A stretch of 64,000 nucleotides of DNA, taken from positions 1-64,000 of the IMG/VR virus record IMGVR_UViG_3300030330_000562; one strand, given 5' to 3'. This document shows positions 78 to 51,573 of this stretch, piece by piece. The stretch is from a virus. Its lineage: Duplodnaviria > Caudoviricetes. Below the pieces are notes generated by a model. That model was not told where the DNA came from, did no database searches, and worked only from the letters and a program-made list of their open reading frames with translations. Within the stretch, counting starts at the first letter, position 1. Every line of letters starts with the position of its first letter. The translations under genes and the position numbers were made by a program.

Positions 78-273
78 AGTGAATAATACTTTAAAACCTT
101 TCGTAAACAATCCAGAGTTGTATAATCCGTTTCTGGAAGAGATAGTTAACAGAATAGATAAAGTTCATAAACGTCTTGAGCAAATCAGTGAAGTAGAAGA
201 ACTGTATCGTGCTCAGGGCGAAATACGTGTGCTTAGAGCGATGTTAAGACTTCGGGAAGATATTAATGGCTAA
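67..273 (+). CDS. Small conserved protein downstream of portal (68 aa)
   Basis: ATGA overlap with portal; homolog at 57344-57550 is 59/68 aa identical. Confidence 0.85.
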   Translation: MKLVVNNTLKPFVNNPELYNPFLEEIVNRIDKVHKRLEQISEVEELYRAQGEIRVLRAMLRLREDING

Positions 274-3200
274 TATAGAAAAACAAATGGAGATGTTTGG
301 CTATACTGCCGAAGAAGCAAAACAAGAAGCTGATAGACTTGCAGCTGATGTAAACACAGATTTAACTTTTAAAGAGGCTGCAACAACTGTAGGTAGTATG
401 TTACCAGGTGTAGGCACTGCCATGACTGTTGCAGAAATAGAAGATGAACTAAAACAAGAAAATCCTAATTATGGTAAGATAGCTTTACTTGGTGGAGCAG
501 AGATAGTTGGTCTTGTTCCTGGACTTGGCACTGCAGCAAAGTCTGGATTAAGAGCTGCAGCAAAAAGACTAGGTGTAGACAAATTAATAAAAGCCATAGA
601 CGCACCTAAACCAGAAGAAGCTGTTAAACTTGAGGCAGGATTTACTGGAACTAATCCACCTACATATGAACCAAGAGTAGATGTAAAACCAAAACTAACT
701 GCAGATGAAATTTTTTTTAGAAAACCAATCATGCAATTTGTTAGATCTTTAGATGTACCTGAAAAAGGTATACTAGGTTCTAATTTTTCAAAACTTGTAG
801 AAAAAAATCCTTCAATCTCACCTACCTCTTTGCAAAAACAATTAATAAATCCTAAAAAAAGATATTCTAAAAAAGAGCTAGAAGATATATTTAAGTCAAA
901 TGAATTTTCTACTGCAGCTATGCCAAAAAAATCGCCATATAAATCTTATCGACAAAATCAAAGACAGCATCAAGTTGGATTTAGGGGTGGATCAGAACAA
1001 GAGTATTTTGAAATACCAATAAAATCTTTTACATCAGATGCTAACATAGCATTCAAGTCAAAAGCTTTTCGTAAACTTCAGAAAGAAAGAAAAAAAGGTA
1101 AACCTGAATTACTTGAATTTAAACCAAAAAAAGATACACATTTTGGAGAACGTTCTATAGCACATCTTAGGGGTTCTATTATAAATCCTCGTTATCATCG
1201 AAATATAGAATCTATTGTAGATTTAACATCTACTCACCCAGAATTTGATAAGATAATAAAAAATGAAAATTTTTTACTTGTTGAAGAACTGCAAAGTAAC
1301 CTTGTTTCAGGTGGATTTTTAGAATCAAAACCTCCATTTACAGAGTATGGTCCACCGCCTATTACTAAAAATAAACAAGCTGTAGAAGAATTAATTAAAG
1401 TTGCTATAGGTAAAGCAGCGAATGAGAATGTAAATTATATTGTTTTTCCAAACGTAACTAGAATAAAACTTGCAAGGGAAAAAATATTTAATCCAAATGA
1501 CAAAGGGGATTTATTCTATCAAACCTATTTTAAACAGGTGAATTCAGCTCTTTCAGATTTAGAAAAAAATTATCCTGTTAAAATATACAATAATGTTAAT
1601 CTACCGTATGACGATAATGCATTTATGCAAACAATAGCATCTACTGGACCAGATATACCCAATACCTACTTAGAAACAATACGACTTGGTAAGAGCTATC
1701 GTACACCAGATGAAATAAATGAAATTATAGATTCAAGCGGTACAGTGTTAGATATAAGCGAACTAGTAAAAAAATTTAAAGTAGAAGAACCGAGACAATT
1801 TGCCGAAGGAGGCACAGTAATGGAGCCAGAACCAAAACCAGAAACCAGACCTTTTCCTGATGTTAAACCACAGGAAAAACCTGAACGTCAAGCTGGAGTA
1901 TACAAAGAAGAATATGACTTTGAAGGAATGCCAGTAGAAATTCCTGTTATTATATTTAAAGATGGGGAAAAAATTGCTTTTGAAAAAGCTCTTCAAACAA
2001 TATCTGAGAGAGGCACTGCAAACGAACCTATTGTAGGCACAGATACTGAAGATCAGGTAAAAGAATTTATTAAAGAGAGAAATCCTACAAGAGAAGAGTT
2101 TGAAACCTATTGGTACAATAAAAGACTAAACAAGGGTGGATCAGTGGAAGATCAAATGGAAATGGCTTTTATGGATGAGGGTGGCCTAACAGATGATGGT
2201 ATGGATAAAGATCCAGTATCAGGTAATGAAGTGCCTTCAGGTTCTATGGCAGAAGAAGTACGAGACGATATACCTGCACAGTTATCTGAGGGTGAATATG
2301 TAGTTCCTGCTGACGTTGTAAGATATTATGGTGTAAAGTTCTTTGAAGATCTACGAGATCAAGCTAAGATGGGTCTAGCTCAAATGGAAGCTGATGGTCG
2401 TATAGGTGGTGAGCCAGTTCCTGATGGTGGCCCTGTAAATCAAGACGACTTGTCTCCACAGGAAATGCAAGCTATACGAGAGGTAATGGGTATGGCTGAA
2501 GGTGGTGATGTACAGAATCCTTATATGCAACAGCAGTTACTGTACAGTCAGCCAAGACCTGCTCCTATAGACGATCAAAAAGATACGATTGTGGATATTA
2601 CTAATCCTGTACAAAACCAGATGCCAGTTCAAAATATGGCTGCAGGTGGTCAGATACAAGGATATCAAACTGGTGGACTTGAGCAAGATTTTCTTAACAC
2701 AGGTCAATCAGCAGTAAACAGAGGCTTTGTGGGATTTCCATTAGGTGCTACAATCTTTCCATCTGAAAAAACTGGTCAAACAGTATTGGGACCAGCTGGA
2801 ACTCAAGTGGCTACAACTGGTGCTATTAACACAGCAGCAACTCAATCTCCAACTTTTACTACCGTAACTCTTTACGGACCTAACGGTGAGATAGTTGTTT
2901 TAACTCTACCAACAGACATAGATCGTTATAATAAACTACTTGCTGAAGGTTACACAACTACAATGCCTGGCACTGCTACAACCACCACTGATACTACCAC
3001 TGATACTACTACTGATACTACTACTGATACAAAAGCTGTAAAAGGTGGTAAAGATGATCCCATAAAAGAAACAATAGGATCAGATCCAAGTAGTTGGATG
3101 GACAAGTTTGATTATAAAGATCTTAATAATTTAGTTGATCAAACAAAGAACTCACTTACAAAATCTCCTATGTTTGGTGCAGACTCTGCACTAGGGGCAT

Positions 3201-3913
3201 TTATGAACGGAACAACAGCAGCACAAGCTGCAGCTAATATTATTATATTAAAGGCTAACGGAGGCGATCCAGATTTTCCAGGGTCTAGACCTGAACTAGT
3301 TTCTGCAGTGCAAGACTTAGAACAACGTTGGAAGCAATATGTTGATAATGATATCCTACTAAAAAATATGCCTGAACAATTTATCAACGGTGATAAACTA
3401 GCAAAAGAAATTGTAGAAAATAACATAGACGTAGCTTTATTTAAAGAATCTAAAGATGTATTTGGTAAAAATATATTTGCAGAAGGCACAGATGAATTTG
3501 AACAATTTGTTAAAAAGGTTGGACCTAAAGGTAGAGGTTCAGAGGGTGCAGCGGAAGCTTTTGCAAGAGTTAGAGAAAGAACAAAAGCAGCAGGTGTAAC
3601 ACCAACAGGAGCACCTCCACCGAGACCTGAAACAGTTTATGATCCTGCAACTGATAAAACAATTGTAAAATCAGGAACTCCAAAAGCTCCACCAGTAAAA
3701 ACTCAAGCACAGAAAGATGCAGATGCTAAAGCTGCTGTGGATGACTGGGTAAAAGCAACTCAAGCTACAAAAGGTAAAAAAGGAATTGCTAGACATAAAG
3801 CAATAAAAGCTCAATCAGAAGCAAGTAAAAGAGCTACAAAAGCTATCAGAGAAAAAACAGGATACAGAGGTTTTACAAGATCAAAAGGTGGACTAATGTC
3901 CAAGGGCAAATAA
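266..3913 (+). CDS. Large modular (polyvalent-type) protein between portal and scaffold, allele A (1215 aa)
   Basis: Long ORF; conserved core DDIPAQLSEGEYVVPADVVRYYG shared with 57543-61847; repeated xxGG motifs; N-terminal LPGVG/VPGLG helical motif; AHLR...LLVEELQS domain. Confidence 0.85.
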   Translation: MANIEKQMEMFGYTAEEAKQEADRLAADVNTDLTFKEAATTVGSMLPGVGTAMTVAEIEDELKQENPNYGKIALLGGAEIVGLVPGLGTAAKSGLRAAAKRLGVDKLIKAIDAPKPEEAVKLEAGFTGTNPPTYEPRVDVKPKLTADEIFFRKPIMQFVRSLDVPEKGILGSNFSKLVEKNPSISPTSLQKQLINPKKRYSKKELEDIFKSNEFSTAAMPKKSPYKSYRQNQRQHQVGFRGGSEQEYFEIPIKSFTSDANIAFKSKAFRKLQKERKKGKPELLEFKPKKDTHFGERSIAHLRGSIINPRYHRNIESIVDLTSTHPEFDKIIKNENFLLVEELQSNLVSGGFLESKPPFTEYGPPPITKNKQAVEELIKVAIGKAANENVNYIVFPNVTRIKLAREKIFNPNDKGDLFYQTYFKQVNSALSDLEKNYPVKIYNNVNLPYDDNAFMQTIASTGPDIPNTYLETIRLGKSYRTPDEINEIIDSSGTVLDISELVKKFKVEEPRQFAEGGTVMEPEPKPETRPFPDVKPQEKPERQAGVYKEEYDFEGMPVEIPVIIFKDGEKIAFEKALQTISERGTANEPIVGTDTEDQVKEFIKERNPTREEFETYWYNKRLNKGGSVEDQMEMAFMDEGGLTDDGMDKDPVSGNEVPSGSMAEEVRDDIPAQLSEGEYVVPADVVRYYGVKFFEDLRDQAKMGLAQMEADGRIGGEPVPDGGPVNQDDLSPQEMQAIREVMGMAEGGDVQNPYMQQQLLYSQPRPAPIDDQKDTIVDITNPVQNQMPVQNMAAGGQIQGYQTGGLEQDFLNTGQSAVNRGFVGFPLGATIFPSEKTGQTVLGPAGTQVATTGAINTAATQSPTFTTVTLYGPNGEIVVLTLPTDIDRYNKLLAEGYTTTMPGTATTTTDTTTDTTTDTTTDTKAVKGGKDDPIKETIGSDPSSWMDKFDYKDLNNLVDQTKNSLTKSPMFGADSALGAFMNGTTAAQAAANIIILKANGGDPDFPGSRPELVSAVQDLEQRWKQYVDNDILLKNMPEQFINGDKLAKEIVENNIDVALFKESKDVFGKNIFAEGTDEFEQFVKKVGPKGRGSEGAAEAFARVRERTKAAGVTPTGAPPPRPETVYDPATDKTIVKSGTPKAPPVKTQAQKDADAKAAVDDWVKATQATKGKKGIARHKAIKAQSEASKRATKAIREKTGYRGFTRSKGGLMSKGK
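2984..3031 (+). repeat. 4 x 12-bp coding tandem repeat (Thr-Thr-Asp-Thr linker)
   Basis: accactgatact x2, actactgatact, actactgataca; encodes TTDT repeats. Confidence 0.9.
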
Positions 3914-3916
3914 CTA

Positions 3917-3963
3917 TAAGGCTACTCAGCTTCGGCTGACCCCAACATAAAAAGGAGAAAAAT
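3917..3963 (+). promoter_or_regulatory. Scaffold gene leader with C(UUCG)G hairpin and Shine-Dalgarno
   Basis: TCAGC-TTCG-GCTGA at 3926-3939, AAGGAG before ATG; identical at 61848-61894 although the flanking genes differ. Confidence 0.7.
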
Positions 3964-4869
3964 ATGCCTGAACTAACAGCAGTAGAAAAACCAAAAACAG
4001 CAGGGTTTGTTGATAGAGGTTACAACTACGAGAAAAAGCGTAAGCGAATGGAAGCCGAAGAAGAGGAGATTCGTAAACTTGAAGCTGAAGCACGTGGAGA
4101 AACAACAACCAACGAAGAACAGCAACCAGAAGAAGAAGCTCCCGAAGAAAAAAAGGCCGATACAGAAGTTAAAGAAGAAACGCTATCTGCTGAAGAAAAA
4201 TCGTTTAAGAAACGCTATGGTGATTTAAGACGCCATATGCAAGAAAAAGAAAAGGAGTGGGACGAGAAGTTTCAAGCCTTTGAAGAACGATTAAAGAAAG
4301 AGGCTATTGTTCCACCTAAGTCTGATGAAGATATAGAAGAGTGGTCTAAAGAGTATCCAGATGTGGCAGGTATTGTAGAAACTATTGCTGCAAAGATAGC
4401 TCAAAAGAAGTTTGATGAAGCTAATCAAGAACTAAAAGACTTGAAGAAAGTACAATCAGAAGCTCAAAGAGCTAAAGCAGAAAGTACAATACGTAAATCA
4501 CATGAGGACTTTGATGATCTACGTGCATCAGATGAGTTTCATAACTGGGTTGATGAACAACCTAAGTGGGTGCAAGATGCACTGTATGAGAACTCAGATG
4601 ATCCAGCTTCTGTAGTTCGTGTTATAGATCTTTATAAAGTAGATAAAGGTCTCACAAAAACTGCAAAGAAAGCAAAAGCAAAAGATGCAGCTTCTACTGT
4701 AACTAAACGTAGTAAAACAGAGATAGATGTAGAAGATGCAAATGACGTAATTCGTGAGTCAGAGGTTGCTAAAATGTCCGACAAGGAGTTTGAAGCAAAT
4801 TCTGATGATATTAACAAAGCTATCCGTTCGGGTAAGTTTGTTTACGATATATCTGGTAAAGCCAGATAA
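3964..4869 (+). CDS. Capsid scaffolding protein
   Basis: Acidic/charged coiled-coil protein directly upstream of major capsid; homolog at 61895-62794. Confidence 0.8.
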   Translation: MPELTAVEKPKTAGFVDRGYNYEKKRKRMEAEEEEIRKLEAEARGETTTNEEQQPEEEAPEEKKADTEVKEETLSAEEKSFKKRYGDLRRHMQEKEKEWDEKFQAFEERLKKEAIVPPKSDEDIEEWSKEYPDVAGIVETIAAKIAQKKFDEANQELKDLKKVQSEAQRAKAESTIRKSHEDFDDLRASDEFHNWVDEQPKWVQDALYENSDDPASVVRVIDLYKVDKGLTKTAKKAKAKDAASTVTKRSKTEIDVEDANDVIRESEVAKMSDKEFEANSDDINKAIRSGKFVYDISGKAR

Positions 4870-4872
4870 CTG

Positions 4873-4900
4873 TTGACAAATTAAAATTCAGCAGTATAAC
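4873..4900 (+). promoter_or_regulatory. Sigma70-type promoter for capsid gene
   Basis: TTGACA-16nt-TATAAC; conserved at 62800-62827 with substitutions only in the spacer. Confidence 0.7.
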
Positions 4901-4903
4901 TAT

Positions 4904-5107
4904 GGGTATGTTGACAAAAGCCTCTTTTTGACTACCTTTTGTCGCACCCAAATCTACAAAAAGTCTAAACTAAGAAGAACTACCTGGACAAGTATAGGCC
5001 CAGTGGTATTAGGTAGCGCAACCTAATATTAACTGCACCCTAGAAAACGTACAGCCCCTTTTAGATGTTTAAGCTTAATTCAAGCCAAATATCAGGAGGA
5101 TTTAATT
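4904..5107 (+). ncRNA. Structured cis-regulatory 5' leader of the major capsid gene (putative)
   Basis: ~200-nt non-coding leader nearly identical to 62831-63034; stem GACAAAAG/CTTTTGTC; stem 5005-5030 with compensatory changes between the copies. Confidence 0.6.
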
Positions 5108-6181
5108 ATGGCTTTTCAAACCGCATCGGGTTACGGTAATTTACCTAATGGTAATTTTAGTCCCGTAATCTATTCCAAGAAGGTACAGCTTGCGTTCCGT
5201 AAAGCTGCTACCGTGGGGGATATCACCAATTCAGATTACTTTGGTGAAATTGCCTCACAAGGCGACACAGTTCGCATAATCAAAGAACCTGAAATCTCAG
5301 TTCAAGCTTATGCACGTGGCACAACAGTCACAGCACAAGATCTTGACGATGAAGATTTTAATCTAGTAGTGGATAAAGCTAACTACTTTGCGTTCAAAAT
5401 GGACGATATCGAAGAAGCTCATTCACACGTAAACTTCATGGATCTTGCAACAGATCGTGCAGCTTACAGACTAGCTGATCAATACGACCAAGAAGTTCTT
5501 GGTTACTTGTCAGGTTTTAAGCAATCTTCTCTGCATGCACAAGCAGACACAGTTAATGACAGTGTAAACGGTTCAAAAGCTGTGACTACCGCAGGTTCAG
5601 ACGAATTGCTTACAAGCATGAAGCTACGTAAAGATTCATTTGGTAACATTACAACGTCATCTGCAGGGGATCATTCAATTCCTGTAGTGGCACGTTTACC
5701 AGGTGCAACTGCTTTACCAACAGCTACAGTTTCACCTGCAATGATTATTGCAAGAATGAAACGATTGCTTGATCAACAACAAGTTGATACACAAGGACGT
5801 TGGCTCGTAATTGACCCAGTGTTCATGGAAATCTTATCAGACGAAGATAGCCGCTTCATGAATGGAGACTACGGTGAGTCTGGTGGACTTCGTAACGGTC
5901 TTGTAATCAACAACTTTCACGGCTTCCGTATGTACGTGTCCTCAAACCTACCTGCTGTAGGTACAGGCCCAGGTACATCAGGATCAGCAAACCAAAATGC
6001 TAACTTTGGTGTGATTGTTGCTGGACATGATTCTGCTGTAGCAACTGCAGAGCAGATCAACAAGACAGAAACATATCGTGACCCTGACAGCTTTGCTGAC
6101 ATTGTCCGTGGTATGCATCTATATGGCAGAAAGATTCTTCGTCCAGAAGCAATCTGTACTGCTAAATACAACGCAGCGTAA
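5108..6181 (+). CDS. Major capsid protein (N4-gp56/P22-coat-like HK97 fold)
   Basis: 357 aa; motifs GDTVRI, YFAFKMDDIE, GRWLVIDP, GFRMYVSSNLP, FADIVRGMHLYGRKIL; strong SD AGGAGG. Confidence 0.92.
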   Translation: MAFQTASGYGNLPNGNFSPVIYSKKVQLAFRKAATVGDITNSDYFGEIASQGDTVRIIKEPEISVQAYARGTTVTAQDLDDEDFNLVVDKANYFAFKMDDIEEAHSHVNFMDLATDRAAYRLADQYDQEVLGYLSGFKQSSLHAQADTVNDSVNGSKAVTTAGSDELLTSMKLRKDSFGNITTSSAGDHSIPVVARLPGATALPTATVSPAMIIARMKRLLDQQQVDTQGRWLVIDPVFMEILSDEDSRFMNGDYGESGGLRNGLVINNFHGFRMYVSSNLPAVGTGPGTSGSANQNANFGVIVAGHDSAVATAEQINKTETYRDPDSFADIVRGMHLYGRKILRPEAICTAKYNAA

Positions 6182-31867: not shown

Positions 31868-31873
31868 GACTTA

Positions 31874-32650: not shown

Positions 32651-32668
32651 TCTATATCCTTAAAAGGT

Positions 32669-32686: not shown

Positions 32687-32704
32687 TAGTTGTTTTGGAG
32701 GAGG

Positions 32705-33211: not shown

Positions 33212-33225
33212 GTTGGCCTCCTTTA

Positions 33226-37791: not shown

Positions 37792-37793
37792 TC

Positions 37794-38189: not shown

Positions 38190-38392
38190 TTATTTACTCC
38201 CATGTTCATCGGTGCATAGACTTCACCATTATATTGACTGCCAGTCTCATTATCTACACCAAAGTTACACCATGCTAAGATAACTAGTATAGCCAGTATC
38301 CAATAGACCGCTGTCTTACTGTACTTGATAAACTTTTCATAGGTTTTCTTAGCTTCTATCTCTGCAAGTTCGTTCGGTGCTTTTCCTTTCAT
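38186..38392 (-). CDS. Small membrane protein
   Basis: AKKTYEKF plus one hydrophobic segment. Confidence 0.6.
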   Translation of the reverse strand: MKGKAPNELAEIEAKKTYEKFIKYSKTAVYWILAILVILAWCNFGVDNETGSQYNGEVYAPMNMGVNK

Positions 38393-38506
38393 TCTTCTAT
38401 ATCCTTTCCCTTATGCTTCTTCTTTCTAGGCACTACACCCTTCTTTCTATCAGGTATAGCTTTCTGTTTATACTTTGGTTGCCGAAGGTCTTTTGCCATC
38501 GGGTTT

Positions 38507-38704
38507 TTAATGTATCGGTCCTTCATACCAGTCATCCCATACTTCACTAAGTTCATCGTGGAACTCTATATCAGCAGCCATCAAAAAGAAAAGAGCTGAT
38601 AGCTCCACTGCATATTCATCTTTAATTTTACCTTGAGCAAACAACTTGCCATACTTTCTAAAAGTAGAGGCAGGTATGCTTCTCTCATGTTTCTTTTTCT
38701 TCAT
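38507..38704 (-). CDS. Hypothetical protein
   Basis: 65-aa ORF overlapping integrase stop. Confidence 0.55.
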   Translation of the reverse strand: MKKKKHERSIPASTFRKYGKLFAQGKIKDEYAVELSALFFLMAADIEFHDELSEVWDDWYEGPIH

Positions 38705-39585
38705 TGCCTTTGTCTCCTCTCCAATGCAGACTTTGCGGTTTTTAAACTAAATTTATTATACGGATTTAGACTGCTGACATTCTTGTGTCCAGTCACAGAT
38801 TGAATGGCTAAGTGGTCTACGTCACTCTCAATCATCTGAACAATGGCGGTCTTACGCAGATCACCTACCCTCAGCTCATCAGGAAGGCAAGCAATAGCCT
38901 TAACCTCTGCCAGTAGTCCAGTCATCTGGGAAACTGTTAGCGGTCTGTAGGCACCGTCTGAGGCTCTGTGGTGAGGCACTACATACGGTTGGAAGTCCCA
39001 GTCACCCTTCTGTTCAGTGAGCATGGCAATTAAGTTAGGTGGTATCGGTAATTCTACCTCAGCTCCACGTTTAGTTTGTTTGATTTGTACAACTCCCTCA
39101 TCAAGATCAACGTTGTCCCAAGTTAGATTGCGAATATCTATTGGACGTTGACCCCACTCATAGCACATCAATACGATCAACCCGATGTTACGCCATTCGA
39201 ATTTAGTAAAGGCGGTATCGAGAAATGATAGTACCTGATCGTGTGTCCATACGACAGATCGTGGTTCACTGCTACGTTTCTTAACTTTAGCCATTGGATT
39301 AGTCACCATTATCTCCATTGATATGAGGTAGTTGATGAGAACTGAAAACACCCTAGCGTTATGGTTTGCATTCGAGGTGGATGTTTCCAGCTCCCACGTA
39401 TCGTATATCTCAGAGCACATCGGTACGGTCAACTTGTTTAGCTTCACGTTACCAAGTCGTCTTCCCATAACAGACATACGACAGAAAGCTAATAGACAAC
39501 ACTCGTAGTTCTTTTGAGAGGAACTAGAGAGGGAGCAGAACTGGCGAGTGTGGAGATAATTGTCTACAGCTTTATTAAATTTCAT
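38701..39585 (-). CDS. Tyrosine recombinase/integrase (start at 39585 preferred; track gives 39600)
   Basis: GQRPIDIR, KQTKRG, GDLRKT, VTGHK...PY catalytic motifs. Confidence 0.88.
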   Translation of the reverse strand: MKFNKAVDNYLHTRQFCSLSSSSQKNYECCLLAFCRMSVMGRRLGNVKLNKLTVPMCSEIYDTWELETSTSNANHNARVFSVLINYLISMEIMVTNPMAKVKKRSSEPRSVVWTHDQVLSFLDTAFTKFEWRNIGLIVLMCYEWGQRPIDIRNLTWDNVDLDEGVVQIKQTKRGAEVELPIPPNLIAMLTEQKGDWDFQPYVVPHHRASDGAYRPLTVSQMTGLLAEVKAIACLPDELRVGDLRKTAIVQMIESDVDHLAIQSVTGHKNVSSLNPYNKFSLKTAKSALERRQRQ

Positions 39586-39635
39586 ATCTTTCCTATCCAA
39601 TGTGAACAGTCATCATGTGGGTCATCTACTTCCAT
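39582..39635 (-). CDS. 17-aa leader ORF (MEVDDPHDDCSHWIGKI) coupled to integrase
   Basis: SD AGGAGG at 39641-39646 (minus); its TGA overlaps the integrase ATG (ATGA). Confidence 0.5.
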   Translation of the reverse strand: MEVDDPHDDCSHWIGKI

Positions 39636-39665
39636 AGGCACCTCCTACATTAAGGAGCCTATAGT

Positions 39666-39730
39666 TATACTTAAAGTTTATAATAATACTACTATTAATA
39701 TTAAAAAACTTTAAGTATACTTTAAGTATA
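39666..39730. repeat. AT-rich inverted-repeat element A (origin-like)
   Basis: TATACTTAAAGT...ACTTTAAGTATA arms around an AT-rich core; related to 46452-46548. Confidence 0.75.
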
Positions 39731-39772
39731 TAAAATACACTAATTTACTAATTAATCAAGTGTGACATGTCG

Positions 39773-40741
39773 TCACATATATTTCTTCCAATACTTATTA
39801 CTACCATAATTGTCTGCGTAGTTGTAATACCTAGACATATCATCAATGTGGCACTCCTCCATGAGTGTGTGTGGGTTAAAGCCATACTGGTCAAGCAGCT
39901 CTGCAATCCTAGTTGGGTAGTCAACAATAATCTGCTCAAGAGCAAAAGTATTATCTTCATCGTAATCATACCTGTAACCATATTTGTCATTGCGTTGCCA
40001 CAAGTCCTCAACCTTGGATGCATCACGCTCAAACACTAGACCAGACCAGTCAGATTGACACAGTGCAATCAGTAATTCATCAGCATAATCAAGGTCTTGC
40101 ACCTCGTTCTTAGTGTGTTGATTGTAGTAGCCAACACTGATATTAGTGCACTCAGATACTACTGAAGCATACTCATTGCTATCGGTATAAGAACCAGTGT
40201 TGTCAGGTTCTAATAGTGGCATATTTACAACATCTGCAAAAGATTTTGCAAAGGCATCAGATGCAGTACGCAGTCCCATCTGGTGTGTGATCACAGAGTT
40301 CTGACCCTTACGATCAAAAGATATTACTGCGTCAATGTAACTCAGCCACTGAGGTTCAGATGCTACAAGCTGCTGACTACCCTGACACCCAGACTCTTCT
40401 GCTGCATGAATAACATAGACACCTTTTACACCGAACTCAATCATGCCAAGGATCAGCCATACACCAGTGGTGCAGTCAGCACCTAGACAATTAGAGTCAG
40501 CATGGTTAGATACAGACACTACGTCATTCATAATGATTAGCTTTTGAAAGCCATCAGTGCTATGCACAGTGTCATGGTGTGCAGTAAAACATAGATTAGG
40601 TTTGTCACCTATCACCTTGATATAATTACCAAACTTGTCAGGCTTGCCGAACGTAGGTTCGAGAAACCTCTTACAAAAAGCTCGCTGCGTAGCACTACCC
40701 TCTGGTCGTTTGTAACGCAACATTTCTACTAGACTATGCAT
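39773..40741 (-). CDS. M28/M20-like zinc metallopeptidase
   Basis: FTAHHDTVH, LGADCTTG, HAAEESG, ISFDR, CTNISVGY..QH Zn ligands. Confidence 0.8.
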   Translation of the reverse strand: MHSLVEMLRYKRPEGSATQRAFCKRFLEPTFGKPDKFGNYIKVIGDKPNLCFTAHHDTVHSTDGFQKLIIMNDVVSVSNHADSNCLGADCTTGVWLILGMIEFGVKGVYVIHAAEESGCQGSQQLVASEPQWLSYIDAVISFDRKGQNSVITHQMGLRTASDAFAKSFADVVNMPLLEPDNTGSYTDSNEYASVVSECTNISVGYYNQHTKNEVQDLDYADELLIALCQSDWSGLVFERDASKVEDLWQRNDKYGYRYDYDEDNTFALEQIIVDYPTRIAELLDQYGFNPHTLMEECHIDDMSRYYNYADNYGSNKYWKKYM

Positions 40742-42360
40742 TAGTCATCCTCCTCTTTTCTTTTCCAAATACCATCTGTTTCATCAAGCTCTAGCTCATC
40801 ACCCTCAGCTTCTTCAATAGATATAGTGTCACCTACATGAGTGATAGCTTTCTGATCGGCAGCATATACCTCACCATCCCAATCGGATATGAAGTAAGTA
40901 CCTGCATCAATAGCACGTTGACTGATATAGCAATCCTGATCCTCACAATAGTAGGCTAGGTCAGTGTGCCAGTACTCATCGTCATTATCACAGTACATGA
41001 AGTGATCACCATACTCAACAGCCCAATCACTAACACGCTCCTCAGTATAACCATTTCTACAACCGTAAGGTACATAGACCGTGTAAGACTGATCAACGTG
41101 ATAATCTGCATCTGCATACTCGCAATAGAAATGCTCATCATAATAGCAGTCATTGCAGTAGTGCTGCTCAGTATACTCACTAAAGTAATATTCTGTCTCC
41201 ATCAAACCACAACCACAATTATCACACTGACAATCGTGAACACTAAGTGTACCTGAGTAGCCACTGGCATCAATGTCACCAGCATCAGAGATGATAAGAT
41301 ACTCACCATTGTCATGTAATCTGCGTGGCTCAGGGTCAAGGTATGGTGCATAGAAAGAATCCTCATCATCATCGACTGGCTTACGCACTAGCCTAGCACC
41401 CTCCCATGCACCATCACAACCATACTCACCACCGTTGGTATTGATATGATGCTCTATCAAATCTATAGCTTGCTCTGACACACCATATATCGGACCGCCT
41501 CTGTACGTGCCATCGGGCATGACACGAACCACACAACGAGATGCGATCTTACCGTCTGCATCTTCTGACCATAAGATCTTGAAGTCACCACTTGCGTAGA
41601 CTGACACTGGATGTACAGGCAAGTGATCGAAATCATACCGCATACATGATGATGCACTAGACTTACGTTGATAAGTGGTGTTGATATTGTCAGTAGGGGC
41701 TTGCGTCCATGAGTATGCTTTGACAAAGTCTGCTGCATCTGTACCCTCCTTGAGAAATAGCTTACGTGTAGCAAACCTGTTAAGATACATATCAGTAAGC
41801 TCAATAATCTGTTTATGTTCTAGCTCAGGAAACATCATAGAAAATGCACGAGCTGGCTTCATGGCAACCTCACGCTCACGCTCAAAGCGATCACGAGCCG
41901 ATTGATACATGGTGATCTTAGGTGCAAACCGTTTGGATCTGCGAGGTGAGAAGCATCGCATACGTATTGTAATCTTGACCTCAGTTTTTACTGCAAGAGT
42001 ACCTCCAGTCACTCGTGATAATGCTCGGTCAAACCATGTGATTAGTGTATCGTCACGGTCACGATTCCACATATTTACCTCATCGTAGTTACCCCATGCC
42101 TTGAGTACAGGGTCAATCTCATCAGGTGCAGACCAGTCACGTTTAACAACAAAGCCATTCTCCTGTGGCTCTGATACTAAGAACTTCATGTCATTGATCC
42201 AGATAGTACCACCAGTCAACTCTCTAGTGTTGTCGTAGTGTACATTTATCTGTGGCATATCCACATCGTAGTTCTTGTACAGCTCAAGTTGTGAAGCAAG
42301 GTGTGCATTGTATGCAGTGACCTTGTCCATATCATGAGGCATTAACCAATATTTAGCCAT
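40741..42360 (-). CDS. Conserved early protein with SSCM motif and acidic Cys/Tyr-rich Zn-ribbon-like C-terminus
   Basis: SSCMRY...HPVSVY...SRCVVR; CDNC...YCNDC repeats; TAATG coupling to the peptidase. Confidence 0.7.
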   Translation of the reverse strand: MAKYWLMPHDMDKVTAYNAHLASQLELYKNYDVDMPQINVHYDNTRELTGGTIWINDMKFLVSEPQENGFVVKRDWSAPDEIDPVLKAWGNYDEVNMWNRDRDDTLITWFDRALSRVTGGTLAVKTEVKITIRMRCFSPRRSKRFAPKITMYQSARDRFEREREVAMKPARAFSMMFPELEHKQIIELTDMYLNRFATRKLFLKEGTDAADFVKAYSWTQAPTDNINTTYQRKSSASSCMRYDFDHLPVHPVSVYASGDFKILWSEDADGKIASRCVVRVMPDGTYRGGPIYGVSEQAIDLIEHHINTNGGEYGCDGAWEGARLVRKPVDDDEDSFYAPYLDPEPRRLHDNGEYLIISDAGDIDASGYSGTLSVHDCQCDNCGCGLMETEYYFSEYTEQHYCNDCYYDEHFYCEYADADYHVDQSYTVYVPYGCRNGYTEERVSDWAVEYGDHFMYCDNDDEYWHTDLAYYCEDQDCYISQRAIDAGTYFISDWDGEVYAADQKAITHVGDTISIEEAEGDELELDETDGIWKRKEEDD

Positions 42361-42361
42361 G

Positions 42362-42853
42362 TTAGTTCCTCCATTCTGGCTCTCTACCCCAACGCCATGT
42401 CAGGGTAATATTGTTTTCTTTCCAACGATCATTCATATACATCCGATACGCTTGATGCACGTCATCAACATCTGAATAATCAACTCCACGTTCTAAATTC
42501 CTAGCACAGTTGGCAAACGGTGTCAACCCCTCACTAGGAAAATATCCACTATCTGCATACTTTTGAAAGTCAGTAAGCAGATTAGCAGACTTGTGCAACC
42601 CATCCTTCTGTAAGAATAGGTGTGACATATGACTAAGCAACCACTTGAAGTTAGCTCGTGATTGCCTAGCCCAGATTGTACAAGGGTGGTTCAAGTATGC
42701 CACCTTGTACACCGATAAGTCAGTATCTGGACACAGTATACGCACTGCGGTAGACAACATTTGCGCAGATTCCAATATCATTTTGTTCTTGCGAATGTCG
42801 TCTAACCACTGTGCAGACTGCATCGGACACTTATCCAATGCAAATATATTCAT
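42362..42853 (-). CDS. Pyrimidine-dimer DNA glycosylase (DenV)-like family protein
   Basis: MNIF.LD..P...A, KMILESAQMLST, NHPCTIWAR, AYRMY motifs. Confidence 0.7.
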   Translation of the reverse strand: MNIFALDKCPMQSAQWLDDIRKNKMILESAQMLSTAVRILCPDTDLSVYKVAYLNHPCTIWARQSRANFKWLLSHMSHLFLQKDGLHKSANLLTDFQKYADSGYFPSEGLTPFANCARNLERGVDYSDVDDVHQAYRMYMNDRWKENNITLTWRWGREPEWRN

Positions 42854-42856
42854 GTA

Positions 42857-43225
42857 TTAATTACTCCCATCACCCATGCTTTTATTGATTATAGCTTGTG
42901 CAAAGTCATTGAGCTTACCACTAAGCCATGCATTGTCGTCCTTCTGAGCTTGCTTGAGCTGCATCAACTCAGCCTTAACCTTGTTATGCTCAGTCTTAAG
43001 CACCTTGAAGTTCTTAGCTATTCTCTCAGCTTTAGTTGGCATAGGTAGACGCTTTGCAACTTTTAGAGAGAAGCCATGCTTTCTAAGCCACAGAATAAGC
43101 GCAGATCTGTGCATACCGAAGTGGTCACACACTTCCTGTTGTGTTATAGATGGATTGCCCATGTACATTTGACACGCTGCAATTTGAACTTCTACATCGA
43201 AACGATTACCATTTGAATTACCCAT
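42857..43225 (-). CDS. HTH-containing protein with C-terminal coiled coil (candidate regulator)
   Basis: ITQQEVCDHFGMHRSALILWLRKHG. Confidence 0.6.
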   Translation of the reverse strand: MGNSNGNRFDVEVQIAACQMYMGNPSITQQEVCDHFGMHRSALILWLRKHGFSLKVAKRLPMPTKAERIAKNFKVLKTEHNKVKAELMQLKQAQKDDNAWLSGKLNDFAQAIINKSMGDGSN

Positions 43226-43247
43226 AATGATCTCCTATAATTTGGGT

Positions 43248-43595
43248 TTAAATTAAACTGCGAACTTCCGCAGTCACGTTATAGTCTGCGACAAACCATC
43301 CACCATTGAATGATATACTGTACAGACCAAAGTTTGGATCAGACTGTTTAATTGCTGATACAATATCAGACAGACTTTCACCAGACATCTTTACAGTTTT
43401 GGTATCACTACCATCAAAGTACGTACCCTCAAGCACGTACTCATCCACCATCTTTACAGCTTGAGCAACCTGAGCATAAGCATAAGCTGCTAGTTGTCTT
43501 TTCCAAAACGGTGTAAGTTTAGGCTTACTTGCACCAAACTTAGAACGTTTTACTGACAGAATTTTTTCTGTTTCTTGTAATTCATGTATCAACAT
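43248..43595 (-). CDS. Hypothetical early protein
   Basis: 115-aa ORF in early operon. Confidence 0.6.
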   Translation of the reverse strand: MLIHELQETEKILSVKRSKFGASKPKLTPFWKRQLAAYAYAQVAQAVKMVDEYVLEGTYFDGSDTKTVKMSGESLSDIVSAIKQSDPNFGLYSISFNGGWFVADYNVTAEVRSLI

Positions 43596-43609
43596 TGTTT
43601 ACAAACCCT

Positions 43610-43834
43610 TCATTCGTTAGACACAATACGGCTGACAGTATCCTCTGCAAACTTTATAGTACCATCGGGTAGATGCACCTCAAGCTCCATGTTGGTATGC
43701 CCGAAGTCACTATCCCTGCGTTGCAATCTACACACGATTTCATTTAGACTACTACCTGTTTCATCTAACATTACTGGTTCTTCTGCACCCATTGGGTAAT
43801 ACCAACCAGTTAAAATTACACTATGATTTTCCAT
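43610..43834 (-). CDS. Hypothetical early protein
   Basis: 74 aa; TAATG overlap with upstream ORF. Confidence 0.6.
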   Translation of the reverse strand: MENHSVILTGWYYPMGAEEPVMLDETGSSLNEIVCRLQRRDSDFGHTNMELEVHLPDGTIKFAEDTVSRIVSNE

Positions 43835-43989
43835 TATGTATCCTCACCATCATTAATAAATACTACAATTTTAAAACCGAAATTCTCAGTTTCATAGTCC
43901 TCACCCTTGATATAATCAAAAATTATATCTCGCATGATGTCAATATCTGAGCAATCAAACTCAGTTAATTCAATTTCTTTTATTGCCAT
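43834..43989 (-). CDS. Small acidic early protein (51 aa, MAIKEIELTEFD...), not in ORF track
   Basis: Read manually; TAATG coupling to 43610-43834. Confidence 0.55.
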   Translation of the reverse strand: MAIKEIELTEFDCSDIDIMRDIIFDYIKGEDYETENFGFKIVVFINDGEDT

Positions 43990-44072
43990 TTATATACCTT
44001 TCACAAATTGAACGGATGCGTGTGATGACAATGACTTTACCATTGTCACCATACAACACCCACTTTTTACCA

Positions 44073-44333
44073 TTATATACTAACTTCATGATCTTCATAC
44101 TCATCCACAAATTCCACATTGTAGTCAAGTATCTCAACCCATTTAAGTCCATACACGTGTGCATAGTAACCGTTTACGTGTCCACTTGACGCACCATGTC
44201 TAGGACAAGTCGCATTTCGCAATACGTCTGGCTCACCACGAAAGTTTTCTATCGGATCATTCAATGATACTGGTTGCATATCATCCTCAGTTACTAGGCG
44301 AAATGTTGCCCCATTAAAGTTTTCTTCAATCAT
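44073..44333 (-). CDS. Hypothetical early protein
   Basis: SD AAGGAG; 86 aa with CPRH motif. Confidence 0.65.
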   Translation of the reverse strand: MIEENFNGATFRLVTEDDMQPVSLNDPIENFRGEPDVLRNATCPRHGASSGHVNGYYAHVYGLKWVEILDYNVEFVDEYEDHEVSI

Positions 44334-44346
44334 GTTATACTCCTTC

Positions 44347-44405
44347 TCTCTAGATTAACATGAGAAAACACCTGACAAAATATTATCAGGTGTTTATTCG
44401 GTTAA
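44347..44405 (-). repeat. Intergenic repeat/hairpin copy 1 (RNase III-site-like)
   Basis: 26-nt exact repeat TCTCTAGATTAACATGAGAAAACACC shared with 44685-44710; long imperfect stem. Confidence 0.75.
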
Positions 44406-44416
44406 CCATCGATTAA

Positions 44417-44674
44417 TTATGCTAGATCATAATCATAATCTTTTGGATACATCTCACCTACAAAACTTTCCTCATCAAAGTTATGGAATTCATCACTTTC
44501 ACGAATTCGATCAAAGCAAATAAACTTATCATAATCATTAGTAAAATACCGGATGCAATCACAATAAGTTATAGCCTTTTGATAATACTTATTCCTCAAA
44601 TCTCTTTGCTTTGCTCTATCGGATCTTTTGATACAATAAATCGCTTTTCTTTCCCATTGATAAACTATGTTCAT
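44417..44674 (-). CDS. Hypothetical early protein
   Basis: 85-aa ORF between the two hairpin repeats. Confidence 0.6.
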   Translation of the reverse strand: MNIVYQWERKAIYCIKRSDRAKQRDLRNKYYQKAITYCDCIRYFTNDYDKFICFDRIRESDEFHNFDEESFVGEMYPKDYDYDLA

Positions 44675-44684
44675 GTTTTCCCTT

Positions 44685-44745
44685 TCTCTAGATTAACATG
44701 AGAAAACACCCGACAGAATACTATCGGGTGCTTATCCAATGTTAA
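44685..44745 (-). repeat. Intergenic repeat/hairpin copy 2 (RNase III-site-like)
   Basis: As copy 1, with compensatory CCTGA/TCAGG to CCCGA/TCGGG change. Confidence 0.75.
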
Positions 44746-44766
44746 GCAAAGTGTTATATTATAACA

Positions 44767-45282
44767 TTACGCTGCCGCTGTAACGCCTTTTTTATCCATA
44801 ATCTTTTGATTGTTTAATTCTTTTTGAACCACTTGCAATGCTGCAATCATAGCACCAATACGCTCTGGATTGCGTTTTGCTACACCTTGAGCATACTTAA
44901 CTGGATCAAAATCTACTACTTCTGTTTCTGTTCTAAATGCACTAGACCATTTAGATCCACGCATTGAAATACCGTCTGCTACCAACTGATTAAGTGTATC
45001 AACTGCACTATTTGTAAGTGTAGCATTTTTAGTTTTGATACGATATTGATTAGTCTTTTTATCAATATTAATATTAACACCTGACCAGATCGATCTGATA
45101 GTCAACTCAAAATTATTAGCACCGTCTTTTTTAGATTTAATCTTATCTAACATCATAGCAATAATCGAAGTATCACCAGTTTTGATAGCATGGTTTACAG
45201 CATCAAGAGTGTTTTGACCCATTGCAATTCCGTTGCCTAAGTTACGTGAAAAGTTACCTACGAATTTTTTAATATCTTGCAT
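44767..45282 (-). CDS. First gene of early arm, hypothetical
   Basis: Strong SD AGGAGG; 171 aa. Confidence 0.75.
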   Translation of the reverse strand: MQDIKKFVGNFSRNLGNGIAMGQNTLDAVNHAIKTGDTSIIAMMLDKIKSKKDGANNFELTIRSIWSGVNINIDKKTNQYRIKTKNATLTNSAVDTLNQLVADGISMRGSKWSSAFRTETEVVDFDPVKYAQGVAKRNPERIGAMIAALQVVQKELNNQKIMDKKGVTAAA

Positions 45283-46897: not shown

Positions 46898-47227
46898 ATG
46901 GTAGTAGACTTTGACATTGATGGTGATGGAAAGGTTACAGAAGAAGAAGTAGCCATGAAAGAACGTATGCTTGAGATAGAGCTACGTGAAGAAAAGGCAG
47001 AATCACAAAAATTTATGGCTTGGGTAGCTATGGGTATGATGATTATTTTCACTATCTTCTTATTTACCCCATTAATGTCAGATTCTAGAGTAAATGCCCT
47101 TGCAGATTTGCTTGGGCTATTTTATATTGCACAAACTGGTGTAGTAGCAGCCTATATGGGCGCAACAGCTTATATGGCAGGTAAGCCAATGGGCAATAAA
47201 ATGGCAATGAAAAAGGATATGAGATAA
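46898..47227 (+). CDS. Putative holin with N-terminal EF-hand-like loop
   Basis: DIDGDGKVTEEE followed by two hydrophobic segments; upstream of endolysin. Confidence 0.6.
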   Translation: MVVDFDIDGDGKVTEEEVAMKERMLEIELREEKAESQKFMAWVAMGMMIIFTIFLFTPLMSDSRVNALADLLGLFYIAQTGVVAAYMGATAYMAGKPMGNKMAMKKDMR

Positions 47228-47511
47228 TGGTGGAGGAAAAAAAATCAGGGTATCATCCTGGAGGTAGAGTAAGAGGAAGACCTGTGAGAAGGGGTAGACC
47301 TACTCAAGCTAGACCTACATCAAGAAGAAGACAACAAGTAGCTTCTAAAATTAATGCACCTGGAATACGTGAAACTTTAGCTAAAAAAAGAACTATTAGA
47401 TCTACAGGAAGACCTTCAACAAGAAGGAAACCTCCATCAAGAGCTAATCCAATAAGCAGATTTAATCAAGCTAGCAGAAGAGCTATGGGCAGATTTAACA
47501 GGAGAAAATAA
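47227..47511 (+). CDS. Arg-rich basic protein
   Basis: 94 aa, very Arg-rich, YHPGG motif. Confidence 0.6.
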   Translation: MVEEKKSGYHPGGRVRGRPVRRGRPTQARPTSRRRQQVASKINAPGIRETLAKKRTIRSTGRPSTRRKPPSRANPISRFNQASRRAMGRFNRRK

Positions 47512-48880: not shown

Positions 48881-49122
48881 TGAGAAATTACAAAAACGAG
48901 TATAAGAAGTATCAAGGTACATCTGTACAGAAAAAGAATAGGGCTTCACGTAATGCAGCTCGCAACACGTTGAAGAAAGCAGGAGTAGTAAAAAAAGGCG
49001 ATGGCAAGGACGTAAACCATCGTAATGGTAATCCCAGAGACAATAGGTCAAAGAATCTATCAGTTACAACTAAACGTGCTAATAGGTCTTTTCCTAGAAA
49101 TAGCAGAGCAGGAAAAAGATAA
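48880..49122 (+). CDS. Small HNH endonuclease-like protein
   Basis: DGKDVNHRNGNPRDNRSKNL...ANRS. Confidence 0.7.
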   Translation: MRNYKNEYKKYQGTSVQKKNRASRNAARNTLKKAGVVKKGDGKDVNHRNGNPRDNRSKNLSVTTKRANRSFPRNSRAGKR

Positions 49123-49418
49123 TGACGACTAAGCGTAAAAGCACAGGGATGAAGGGTCTGACTATTAAAGGGGGCCATAAACGTCCTACTAAAAAAGGCG
49201 CTGGTATGACAGCTAAAGGTGTAGCTGCGTATAGAAGAAAAAATCCTGGGTCTAAACTTAAGACTGCTGTTACTGAAAAAAAACCATCAAGTAAAGCTAG
49301 GGCTGCAAGACGTAAGTCTTTCTGTGCTAGATCCGCAGGACAAATGAAAAAATTTCCAAAAGCAGCTAAAGATCCTAATTCAAGATTAAGACAGGCTCGT
49401 AGAAGATGGCGTTGTTAG
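49122..49418 (+). CDS. Basic protein (RRKSFCARS...RRRWRC family)
   Basis: 98 aa Lys/Arg-rich; GMTAKGVAAYR...PGSKLK motif. Confidence 0.7.
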   Translation: MTTKRKSTGMKGLTIKGGHKRPTKKGAGMTAKGVAAYRRKNPGSKLKTAVTEKKPSSKARAARRKSFCARSAGQMKKFPKAAKDPNSRLRQARRRWRC

Positions 49419-49613: not shown

Positions 49614-49705
49614 AGATGATAAGATGGTTATGGAGATATTTTAGAAGAATAGGTTGTGCAATTTTAAATAAAAATTGTGGACCTGAATGCAACTGTAAGG
49701 CGTAG
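49610..49705 (+). CDS. 31-aa Cys-rich peptide (MKMIRWLWRYFRRIGCAILNKNCGPECNCKA), not in ORF track
   Basis: ATGA overlap with the previous gene; ends 4 nt before the next ATG. Confidence 0.5.
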   Translation: MKMIRWLWRYFRRIGCAILNKNCGPECNCKA

Positions 49706-49709
49706 TAAC

Positions 49710-50000
49710 ATGGCTTTAACAAAACAAAATAAAACTAAAGTTAAGAAAGTAATTAAAGGTTTAAAGAAAGCCTCTAAATTACATGCAGGTCAAGCAAAGA
49801 CTTTAAAAAAAGTAAGTGGAATGTCTAAAGGTGGTAGTACAGTCAACAAAGCAGGTAACTATACCAAGCCTGGGATGCGCAAGAGTTTATTCAACTCAAT
49901 CAAGGCTGGAAGTAAGGGCGGCAATCCAGGCCAATGGTCAGCCAGAAAAGCTCAGATGTTGGCTAAACAGTACAAAGCAAAAGGCGGAGGCTACAAGTAG
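49710..50000 (+). CDS. Basic protein with MSKGG motif (track start 49677)
   Basis: GQWSARKAQMLAKQYKAKGGGYK. Confidence 0.7.
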   Translation: MALTKQNKTKVKKVIKGLKKASKLHAGQAKTLKKVSGMSKGGSTVNKAGNYTKPGMRKSLFNSIKAGSKGGNPGQWSARKAQMLAKQYKAKGGGYK

Positions 50001-50544: not shown

Positions 50545-51205
50545 TATACCCTACTTCAAAGCATGGGTTCGTAGAGAGTATACAAAAAATTTAGAAGAAT
50601 ACCACGGAGAGTTTTTACATGCTATGGTAATTGGTGTAACCACCATGCCAAACAGGACTCTAAGTTTTCAAGTTATATTTACAGGTTGTGAGTCAGATTT
50701 TGATGACTCAGAAAATGTACATGGTGGTGCAATGTGGGCAAGAATGCCTCTAACAGCACTCGTGGCAGATACCCCCCTAGAAGAATGGCCTACAGAGTTA
50801 CCACCATATTTAGCACAACCCTGGGATTGTATGTCGCATACACACTCAGTATATAAATTAGAAAGAGCTACACCTGCTCCTTGGATAGCTAAGGTAGATG
50901 GTGAGTTCTATCCTGCAAAATATTACTTCACTGTAGACTACACAGATAACGAAGTAGCAGACGATCCTGCACAACATAAACAATCTCATGTTTTAGAATT
51001 GTTAGACGCAGGTGAATACACAGGTAACATGGTTGCGTTGCCCAATAATAGAGTGAGAGTAACTCACCCAGCTTGGTTTGAAACTGGACAAGGTGCTCCA
51101 GATTTTAGACCTAATCAAAATATTTATAACTCAAAAGAAAACGTAGACTATGTATGGGATACGCAACGAGTGTTTAACAATTTATATAGTGAGGAAGAAC
51201 AATGA
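50525..51205 (+). CDS. Conserved phage protein of unknown function (track start 50477)
   Basis: GGAMWARMPL, QPWDC, YYFTVDY, HKQSHV, LPNNRVR. Confidence 0.75.
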   Translation: MPYLQSSIPYFKAWVRREYTKNLEEYHGEFLHAMVIGVTTMPNRTLSFQVIFTGCESDFDDSENVHGGAMWARMPLTALVADTPLEEWPTELPPYLAQPWDCMSHTHSVYKLERATPAPWIAKVDGEFYPAKYYFTVDYTDNEVADDPAQHKQSHVLELLDAGEYTGNMVALPNNRVRVTHPAWFETGQGAPDFRPNQNIYNSKENVDYVWDTQRVFNNLYSEEEQ

Positions 51206-51573
51206 AACCAGATTTTTTAGATATTGATAAAGACGGTGATAAAAAAGAGTCTATGAAAAAAGCCTCTAAAGACCGTAAAAAGAAAAAAGGAATGGCTAAA
51301 GGTGGGGCTATGATGAAGAAAAAAGGTATGGCTAATGGTGGTGCTATGATGAAAAAGAAAGGCATGGCCAAAGGCGGAGCACAAATGAAAAAGAAGGGTA
51401 TGGCTAACGGTGGAGCCATGATGAAGAAAAAGGGTATGGCTAACGGTGGAGCAATGAAAAAGAAAGCTTACGCTAAGGGTGGTAGAGTTGCCATGTATAA
51501 CGTAGGTGGAATGGTTAAGTCTTCTGGTGAGCTTAATACAGGTATTGCTAGACCTAAAAATACCTACAAGTAA
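51202..51573 (+). CDS. Basic repeat protein (KKKGMAxGGAxM)n
   Basis: Five 11-12-aa repeats plus two variant GG motifs; N-terminal DIDKDGD. Confidence 0.8.
   Translation: MKPDFLDIDKDGDKKESMKKASKDRKKKKGMAKGGAMMKKKGMANGGAMMKKKGMAKGGAQMKKKGMANGGAMMKKKGMANGGAMKKKAYAKGGRVAMYNVGGMVKSSGELNTGIARPKNTYK
51280..51483 (+). repeat. ~36-bp degenerate coding tandem repeat
   Basis: Encodes KKKGMA(K/N)GGA(M/Q)M x5 and KKKAYAKGG. Confidence 0.85.

Follow-up and report, generated by a model that had tools for sequence, protein, structure and literature searches.

A conserved tape-measure-type cassette and its flanking Gly-Gly motifs in the post-portal mosaic protein of an HMO-2011-type marine podovirus

The locus and its phage

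The window analysed here is a stretch of 64,000 nucleotides, positions 1 to 64,000 of the IMG/VR virus record IMGVR_UViG_3300030330_000562 (Duplodnaviria; Caudoviricetes). Its subject is a large mosaic protein encoded after the portal gene, hereafter the post-portal protein, together with a short peptide motif that punctuates it and reappears in a small Lys-rich protein encoded by an open reading frame (ORF) at 51202. The motif consists of a hydrophobic residue, any two residues and Gly-Gly (GG); it was counted as [FYMLI]xxGG, and phi denotes its hydrophobic position. A preliminary description of this DNA had proposed that the motif marks module boundaries, recurs across unrelated late proteins and forms part of a processing or capsid-targeting system. 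All the motifs that it quoted in the post-portal proteins and in ORF 51202 are found where it placed them; the observation is confirmed, and the interpretation is supported in part.

The phage is an HMO-2011-type marine podovirus. Its terminase and portal DNA shares 65–74% identity with the Roseobacter phages CRP-9, CRP-13 and CRP-1 and with the Puniceispirillum phage HMO-2011, and its late-gene families include an SU10-type portal, an SU10-type adaptor and a capsid of the family Phage_capsid_4. The portal gene is followed by an ORF of 68 amino acids (aa) and then by the post-portal gene; a separate scaffold-like gene (3964–4869), which belongs to a family of unknown function, lies in the capsid module. 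The record measures 86,433 b and corresponds to approximately 1.5 passes round a genome of approximately 57 kb: window positions 1–6073 are repeated at 57278–64000, the two passes being 84–90% identical. The record is a chimeric assembly joining two co-occurring strains. As it circles the genome one and a half times, the window contains two versions of the post-portal protein, A and B. These had been described as alleles, but they are versions from two strains and not two alleles of one genome. The two versions have only the central ∼400 aa in common, with 49% identity, and their nucleotide similarity begins at base 1798, one base ahead of the FAEGG codons (1799). The coordinates of all these features are collected in Table 1.

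Table 1. Post-portal proteins, their motifs and the small motif-bearing proteins of the window
Feature	Position	Strand	Remarks
Post-portal mosaic protein, version A	266..3913	+	1215 aa
Layout of version A			N-terminal cargo aa 1–~510; conserved centre ~512–900; variable C-part; Lys-rich tail
FAEGG, version A	1799..1813	+	aa 512–516; likeness of A and B begins here in protein and DNA
LNKGG, version A	2126..2140	+	aa 621–625; cargo/core junction; similarity among 112 long homologues starts here
MDEGG, version A	2171..2185	+	aa 636–640; closes QMEMAF helix; GG invariant in homologues
Invariant acidic core, version A	2180..2416	+	aa 639–717, 79 aa, net charge −11; holds DDIPAQLSEGEYVVPADVV
MAEGG, version A	2492..2506	+	aa 743–747; downstream flank; GG nearly invariant
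MAAGG and YQTGG, version A	2636..2677	+	aa 791–804 (starts 791, 800); low-confidence linker
C-terminal tail, version A	3878..3910	+	SKGGLM and Lys/Gly run (..SKGGLMSKGK)
YHPGG	47251..47265	+	in 94-aa Arg-rich protein (ORF 47227–47511)
MSKGG	49821..49835	+	in 107-aa basic protein (ORF 49677–50000), N-boundary of phrog_17747 domain
ORF 51202 product	51202..51573	+	123 aa, Lys-rich, net charge +27; five MA(K/N)GG, YAKGG and YNVGG
Post-portal mosaic protein, version B	57534..61847	+	1437 aa; cargo differs from A, core the same
FAEGG, version B	59970..59984	+	aa 813–817
INKGG (aa 924) and MNEGG (aa 939), version B	60303..60362	+	span aa 924–943
Invariant core, version B	60357..60593	+	aa 942–1020
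MSEGG (aa 1046) and MYGGG (aa 1076), version B	60669..60773	+	span aa 1046–1080
C-terminal tail, version B	61800..61844	+	LNKGGLM and Lys run

Distribution of the motif

Expected motif counts were obtained by shuffling residues inside each protein 2000 times. The two post-portal proteins together contain 14 motifs where 3.9 are expected (p<0.0005), and ORF 51202 contains seven where 0.7 are expected. The remaining late proteins do not share this enrichment: the other 24 structural proteins contain 20 motifs against 16 expected (p=0.19). Two motifs against 1.4 are found in the other small plus-strand proteins, and the early proteins contain one against 4.2. The enrichment is therefore real but limited to the post-portal protein and ORF 51202, and the proposed recurrence across unrelated late proteins fails: as these other proteins lie at background, the motif is no general late-protein signal.

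Gly-Gly dipeptides as such show further patterns. In the minus-strand early/replication proteins (28115–45282) they are present at about half of the number expected from composition (9 observed, 17.7 expected). A 320-aa protein of the presumed ejection block (23132–24094) terminates exactly in IRIGG; in the second strain copy (record positions 81680–85192) the 285-aa counterpart has no IRIGG end, and the next protein, of 1170 aa, terminates in RFGG.

Conservation of the core and position of the module junctions

The segment surrounding the GEYV residues had been singled out as the best conserved part of the post-portal protein, and the homologues bear this out: approximately 37 columns are invariant over 93–150 homologue clusters, the GG at −40 relative to GEYV being among them; the GG at +65 varies hardly at all. 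With the 111-aa core as query, a full HMMER search retrieved 3228 representative clusters at E≤1e-3. The proteins that carry it are between 176 and 2050 aa long, and its position within them ranges from residue 1 to past residue 1400. In a set composed of the 150 best clusters and four references (n=154) the motifs stand at fixed offsets from GEYV, namely −60 (107/154), −40 (150/154), +65 and +95. The GEYV segment and the motif, whose association had been suggested earlier, thus behave as one evolutionary unit. Motif density is at background in the N-terminal part, with 0.17 per 100 aa, as opposed to 0.74 per 100 aa downstream.

The N-terminal parts, here called cargo, are unrelated between versions A and B and among 112 homologues with long N-termini. 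Pairwise comparison of these homologues yields 11,964 similarity boundaries, 58% of which fall within a few residues of a phi-x-K-G-G motif. Natural homologues devoid of cargo, including gp49 of HMO-2011, begin just past this junction motif. The opposite end of the protein follows a comparable pattern: in 114 of 150 clusters it consists of GG, a hydrophobic residue and a run of Lys or Arg, while the ∼300 aa ahead of it are unrelated. The notion of a boundary mark accordingly holds for the cargo/core junction and for the C-terminus.

The cargo gave no match to a curated enzyme family. An HExxH motif (HEIQH) in the cargo of version B (57534–59970) and a Cys/His-containing region reminiscent of NlpC/CHAP-type hydrolases in the CRP-9 homologue (3559–4500) were noted by eye only. 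The version B cargo also shows a weak match to the polyvalent-protein domain LPD23, which reaches 35.5 bits in the long homologue P0102, against a cut-off of 27, and 16–24 bits in P0002 and P0123.

Link to tape measure proteins

When a 62-aa core was compared by tblastn with 50,697 phage records, 230 of them matched. Among the matches listed, those outside the HMO-type/pelagiphage group are nearly all annotated as tape measure proteins (TMPs). They comprise TMPs of the Burkholderia phiE125 group (E=2e-4) and of the Gordonia phage Clawz (1e-3), as well as those of Mycobacterium, Arthrobacter, Vibrio, Acinetobacter, Stenotrophomonas, Streptomyces and Enterobacter phages. A hypothetical protein of a Rhizobium phage matches as well. 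All ten TMP cassettes that were read display a GG motif, mostly phi-A-x-G-G, 8–25 residues ahead of a D-x-I-P-A-x-L-S-x-G-E-(F/Y/H)-V strand and a helix, and seven of the ten have a second GG motif past the strand, within the stretch read. In hhalign comparisons the core profile matched single cassettes with values of 96.9% (Burkholderia), 94.9% (Gordonia) and 93.7% (Arthrobacter), whereas twelve shuffled controls did not exceed 0.7%. Thus both tblastn and hhalign find in the post-portal protein the GG-flanked IPAxLSxGE(F/Y)V cassette that TMPs carry near the C-terminus. On the basis of sequence comparison, the GEYV segment and its flanking phi-A-x-G-G motifs make up one conserved block, the same cassette as that near the C-terminus of siphophage TMPs.

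A resemblance to the lambda TMP, gpH, had also been put forward. The motifs FATGG, GEFVF and YATGG given for gpH are correct, and the cassette occupies aa ∼731–785 of gpH. The C-terminal region of gpH aligns collinearly with the Burkholderia TMP, both motifs included (E=2e-12), so that the resemblance amounts to real homology through intermediate TMPs. In the phage JBD30 the cassette corresponds to aa ∼1017–1085 of gp46, which matches a TMP cassette profile at 98.5%. A homologue search with the gpH C-terminus yielded nothing beyond identical Escherichia coli prophage copies and was therefore useless for building a profile.

A further genomic context, the third beside TMPs and HMO-type phages, is provided by the Rhizobium phage RHph_TM3_14A (60.9 kb), in which a hypothetical protein of 363 aa (2128–3216) carries the cassette at its C-terminal end, preceded by LASGG.

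Family scans and predicted fold

For the core, scanning both versions against Pfam, NCBIfam and PHROG gave no informative family, and the post-portal protein matches no curated Pfam or NCBIfam TMP family, TMP_2 and Tape_meas_lam_C included. The only family match labelled as a TMP is phrog_3547 ('tape measure', 2e-5). Tape_meas_lam_C (PF09718), which was searched for in the record without a match, lies upstream of the cassette, at residues 627–701 of lambda gpH and in the corresponding part of the Burkholderia TMP. The cassette is for this reason uncatalogued; neither Pfam nor NCBIfam nor the PDB has an entry that covers it. Nothing relevant came out of literature searches for the motif strings, and a paper dissecting the TMP of phage TP901-1 mentions neither cleavage nor the motif.

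An AlphaFold2 model built on a 93-row alignment depicts the core as an extended chain and one long helix, with confidence values (pLDDT) of 52–70. The motifs lie at the C-terminal ends of helices or in linkers with pLDDT below 50. Two small domains modelled with confidence (pLDDT 92–97) flank the core in version A, at aa 544–623 (1895–2134) and aa 865–893 (2858–2944); neither has a PDB match. A Foldseek search of the model against the PDB gave nothing at E≤0.001, and a PDB profile search produced Lys-rich low-complexity matches only. The combination of an invariant sequence with the lack of a confident monomer fold suggests that the core may adopt its fold upon binding a partner or upon oligomerization.

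Small basic proteins

The motifs of ORF 51202 are carried by a tandem repeat of 36 bp in 5.2 copies (51280–51465), which encodes the 12-aa unit KKKGMA(K/N)GGAMM. Units of this type build up 24 small basic ORFs, grouped in three families, on related IMG/VR contigs. A database search extended the family of ORF 51202 to 516 clusters, all unnamed and all from marine metagenomes. Among the 120 of these that were listed, proteins harbour 3–10 copies of the motif, in which GG is invariant, the hydrophobic position is Tyr or Met and Ala adjoins it. No homologue of ORF 51202 was detected in cultured phages, the genomes of CRP-9 and HMO-2011 included. The two other small basic proteins that had been cited as carriers contain one motif each, and neither MSKGG nor YHPGG is above chance on its own. 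The Arg-rich protein with YHPGG has no family match in Pfam, NCBIfam and PHROG scans.

Other features of this region are the following. In ORF 51202 the Lys-rich repeats are preceded by an N-terminal part (51202–51300) with a D-x-D-x-D-G loop of the EF-hand/dockerin-like type. A weak Pfam EF-hand_1 match (0.0023), not assigned to a particular protein, is present among the plus-strand proteins, and in one Atlas neighbour cluster 34% of the members have Dockerin_1. A small basic neighbour of the MSKGG protein, ORF 49122–49418, matches DUF6321.

Functional interpretation

The reading favoured here, to which an even chance is given, is that a TMP-type hook-and-joint cassette is the invariant anchor of a cargo protein that is mosaic and probably ejected, and that the GG motifs are flexible joints for module exchange. 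The post-portal protein is probably a cargo-carrying virion protein ejected into the host. Its acidic core, without a stable fold alone, would become a short hairpin-plus-helix hook once bound to a partner or assembled into an oligomer, and through this hook the protein would be docked in the DNA exit channel. Flanking the hook on both sides, the GG motifs may cap helices and provide flexible joints, and the C-terminus, NKGGLM and poly-Lys, may form a distal tip resting on the channel plug in the same way as the MRDGGLF of lambda gpH rests on gpI. Cargo modules would be swapped by recombination at the joints, because these are both tolerant and conserved. Cutting at a joint may also occur, as it does in T5 and lambda, but is not required by the model.

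A number of points weigh against this scheme. The links of lambda and JBD30 to the core are transitive, through intermediate TMPs: in direct hhalign comparisons with the core profile lambda gpH scores 0.3% and JBD30 gp46 a weak 2.3%, and the match of the core hidden Markov model to gpH is not significant. The higher hhalign values are partly circular, as the TMP examples were picked from BLAST matches; the near-exclusive TMP annotation of the weak matches is a more independent argument. For TMPs the hook function is itself no more than a prediction in the literature; the exception is the T5 element, for which no homology is detectable. The post-portal gene is situated between the portal and the scaffold/capsid genes of a podovirus, hence among head genes and not among tail genes, where a TMP would belong, and a separate block of presumed ejection proteins exists at 21.8–27.7 kb. 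The placement of the post-portal protein in the virion and in the exit channel is inferred. Finally, the hook model does not explain the tandem motif arrays in small Lys-rich proteins.

In an alternative that we regard as rather unlikely, the phi-A-x-G-G joints would be obligatory proteolytic sites. The post-portal protein would then be a polyprotein from which cargo, core and tail are released as separate pieces, and the repeats of the Lys-rich proteins would be cut into cationic peptides of 10–12 aa, in a manner similar to adenovirus core-protein maturation or the T4 internal peptides. Such a role would have precedents in T5 and lambda. T5 pb2 is cut after R1127, as experimentally mapped (Linares et al. 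2023, PMC10038345), exactly ahead of AEGGMM, and this in a protein in which GG is rare, with five GG and two A-x-G-G in 1219 aa; the cut nevertheless precedes Ala instead of following GG, and no homology to the cassette is detectable in the C-terminal region of the T5 protein. Lambda gpH is cut into gpH* and gpHC in a Gly-rich region just before the cassette and its first FATGG, by a protease and at a site that are both unknown (PMC12617516). A cut between F733 and A734 would yield products of 79.8 and 12.5 kDa, close to the reported ∼78–79 and ∼14 kDa, but a cut anywhere in aa 700–740 suits the gel masses equally, so that this agreement is not discriminating. The invariance of GG, which exceeds the needs of a helix cap, the location of the motifs in exposed, low-confidence linkers of the AlphaFold2 model and the natural cargo-less proteins that start just past the junction motif are all consistent with processing. 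Against it, no endopeptidase family, whether prohead protease, JAB, C39, adenain-like or any other, turned up when 41 proteins of the plus strand and 27 of the minus strand were scanned with Pfam and PHROG. The only peptidase family detected is Peptidase_M28, an exopeptidase family, in an early minus-strand protein (28–45 kb block, 1.3e-5), to which the HExxH of the version B cargo may be added, and the capsid module, with its separate scaffold-like gene, contains no detectable protease family. Double-glycine leader/C39 and ubiquitin-like/JAB systems were considered too and rejected, since no such peptidase was detected.

An extended form of the processing proposal is decidedly improbable. It holds that the phi-A-x-G-G joints would be the sites of a conserved maturation cut common to siphophage TMPs and to a podoviral head-encoded ejection protein, for which either the cassette itself or a host protease would be responsible, and that the Lys-rich arrays would be precursors of packaged cationic peptides of 10–12 aa. 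If it were true, it would settle a long-standing problem of lambda gpH, the mechanism and the site of its cut.

Equally improbable is a packaging tag, in which the motif and the Lys run would be read by the acidic GEYV core or by the portal, so bringing the small basic proteins and the tail of the post-portal protein itself into the head together with the DNA. The unit KKKG-[YM]-A-K-GG-[AM] is present in the three small basic families on related contigs and in the 516 metagenomic clusters, and it resembles the NKGGLM-polyLys end of 114 of the 150 post-portal homologues; the charges of the core (−11) and of ORF 51202 (+27) are opposite, and the post-portal gene adjoins the portal gene. The cassette and its motifs, however, also operate in TMPs, which are tail-lumen proteins, so that the function common to both cannot be head targeting. 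With the same cassette at work inside siphophage tails, a role in capsid targeting is difficult to sustain; the TMP motifs, moreover, have no Lys runs. In addition, CRP-9 and HMO-2011 possess the core but no detectable ORF 51202 homologue.

The most improbable of the alternatives is that no system exists, the motif being a generic helix stop or flexible linker enriched by common descent and by slippage-born Lys/Gly/Met-rich repeats: motifs lying at predicted helix ends and in disordered linkers, an ORF 51202 array that is a DNA tandem repeat of varying copy number among relatives and the unenriched state of other late proteins would fit it, but the GG and phi/Ala positions are kept across siphophages infecting Actinobacteria and Proteobacteria and marine podoviruses, the C-terminal motif is retained although the preceding ∼300 aa are unrelated, and the T5 maturation cut coincides with such a motif.

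The cassette is widespread, as its podoviral form alone accounts for the 3228 representative clusters, to which the TMPs of Actinobacteria and Proteobacteria phages are added, and the phage group in which it was found here is among the most abundant podoviruses of the ocean. As the core of a head-encoded cargo protein it would join two protein classes that enter the cell ahead of the DNA, and it would define a natural joint for swapping delivered enzyme modules. What is new is the head-gene context of the cassette in a podovirus and the Lys-rich motif-array proteins.

Comparison with known systems

In adenoviruses the viral protease cleaves core proteins at (M/I/L)XGG-X sites, and the polyproteins of African swine fever virus are processed at Gly-Gly-X. 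The likeness lies in a hydrophobic residue and Gly-Gly in basic, DNA-associated virion proteins and is an analogy only: the adenovirus spacing is phi-x-GG whereas it is phi-x-x-GG here, and no cognate cysteine protease was detected in the phage, Peptidase_M28 being the sole peptidase family encountered in the scans. The capsid targeting peptide of the T4 type is N-terminal, unlike the motif described here, which is internal or C-terminal and reaches only background density in the N-terminal cargo; a T4-type system would also involve a prohead protease, which the Pfam and PHROG scans did not find.

Polyvalent proteins of phages and conjugative elements, an account of which is attributed to Iyer, Burroughs, Anand, de Souza and Aravind in 2017, are reportedly mosaics with LPD domains and exchangeable enzyme-like modules. 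The post-portal family resembles them as a large mosaic with exchangeable, variable modules and with LPD23 above the cut-off in one homologue. It differs in its conserved anchor, which is a TMP-type cassette and not a MuF-like or other described head-incorporation domain.

The closest parallels are found among TMPs. In T5 pb2 the hub is bound by a hook, which is made up of the segment preceding the mapped cut (Linares et al. 2023, PMC10038345). To go by the title of one reference, the maturation of pb2 into pb2* and pb2C may involve the host. As hhalign detects no homology between the C-terminal region of pb2 and the cassette, the T5 parallel is held at the level of the motif only. For JBD30, Valentova et al. 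(2024, PMC11445458) predict that residues 1022–1066 of gp46 fold into two helices and a short hairpin, a hook by which the TMP would be held in the baseplate; the cut at 1066 is likewise a prediction of theirs. These residues are the cassette itself, flanked by GFASGG and HATGG.

Lambda gpH is a tail ruler encoded among tail genes and has TMP_2 and Tape_meas_lam_C, whereas the window's protein has neither and is encoded after the portal gene; swappable N-terminal cargo and a poly-Lys end set the latter further apart. After the cut, three copies of gpHC remain bound to gpI (PMC12617516), and residues 818–842 of gpH form a coiled coil followed by RDGGLFS, which rests on the gpI plug (PMC10721106). 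The order of elements in gpH is the same as in the post-portal protein: FATGG, the GEFVF strand and helix, YATGG, a variable stretch and a C-terminal helix ending in MRDGGLF, the same kind of motif as that in the NKGGLM tail described here.

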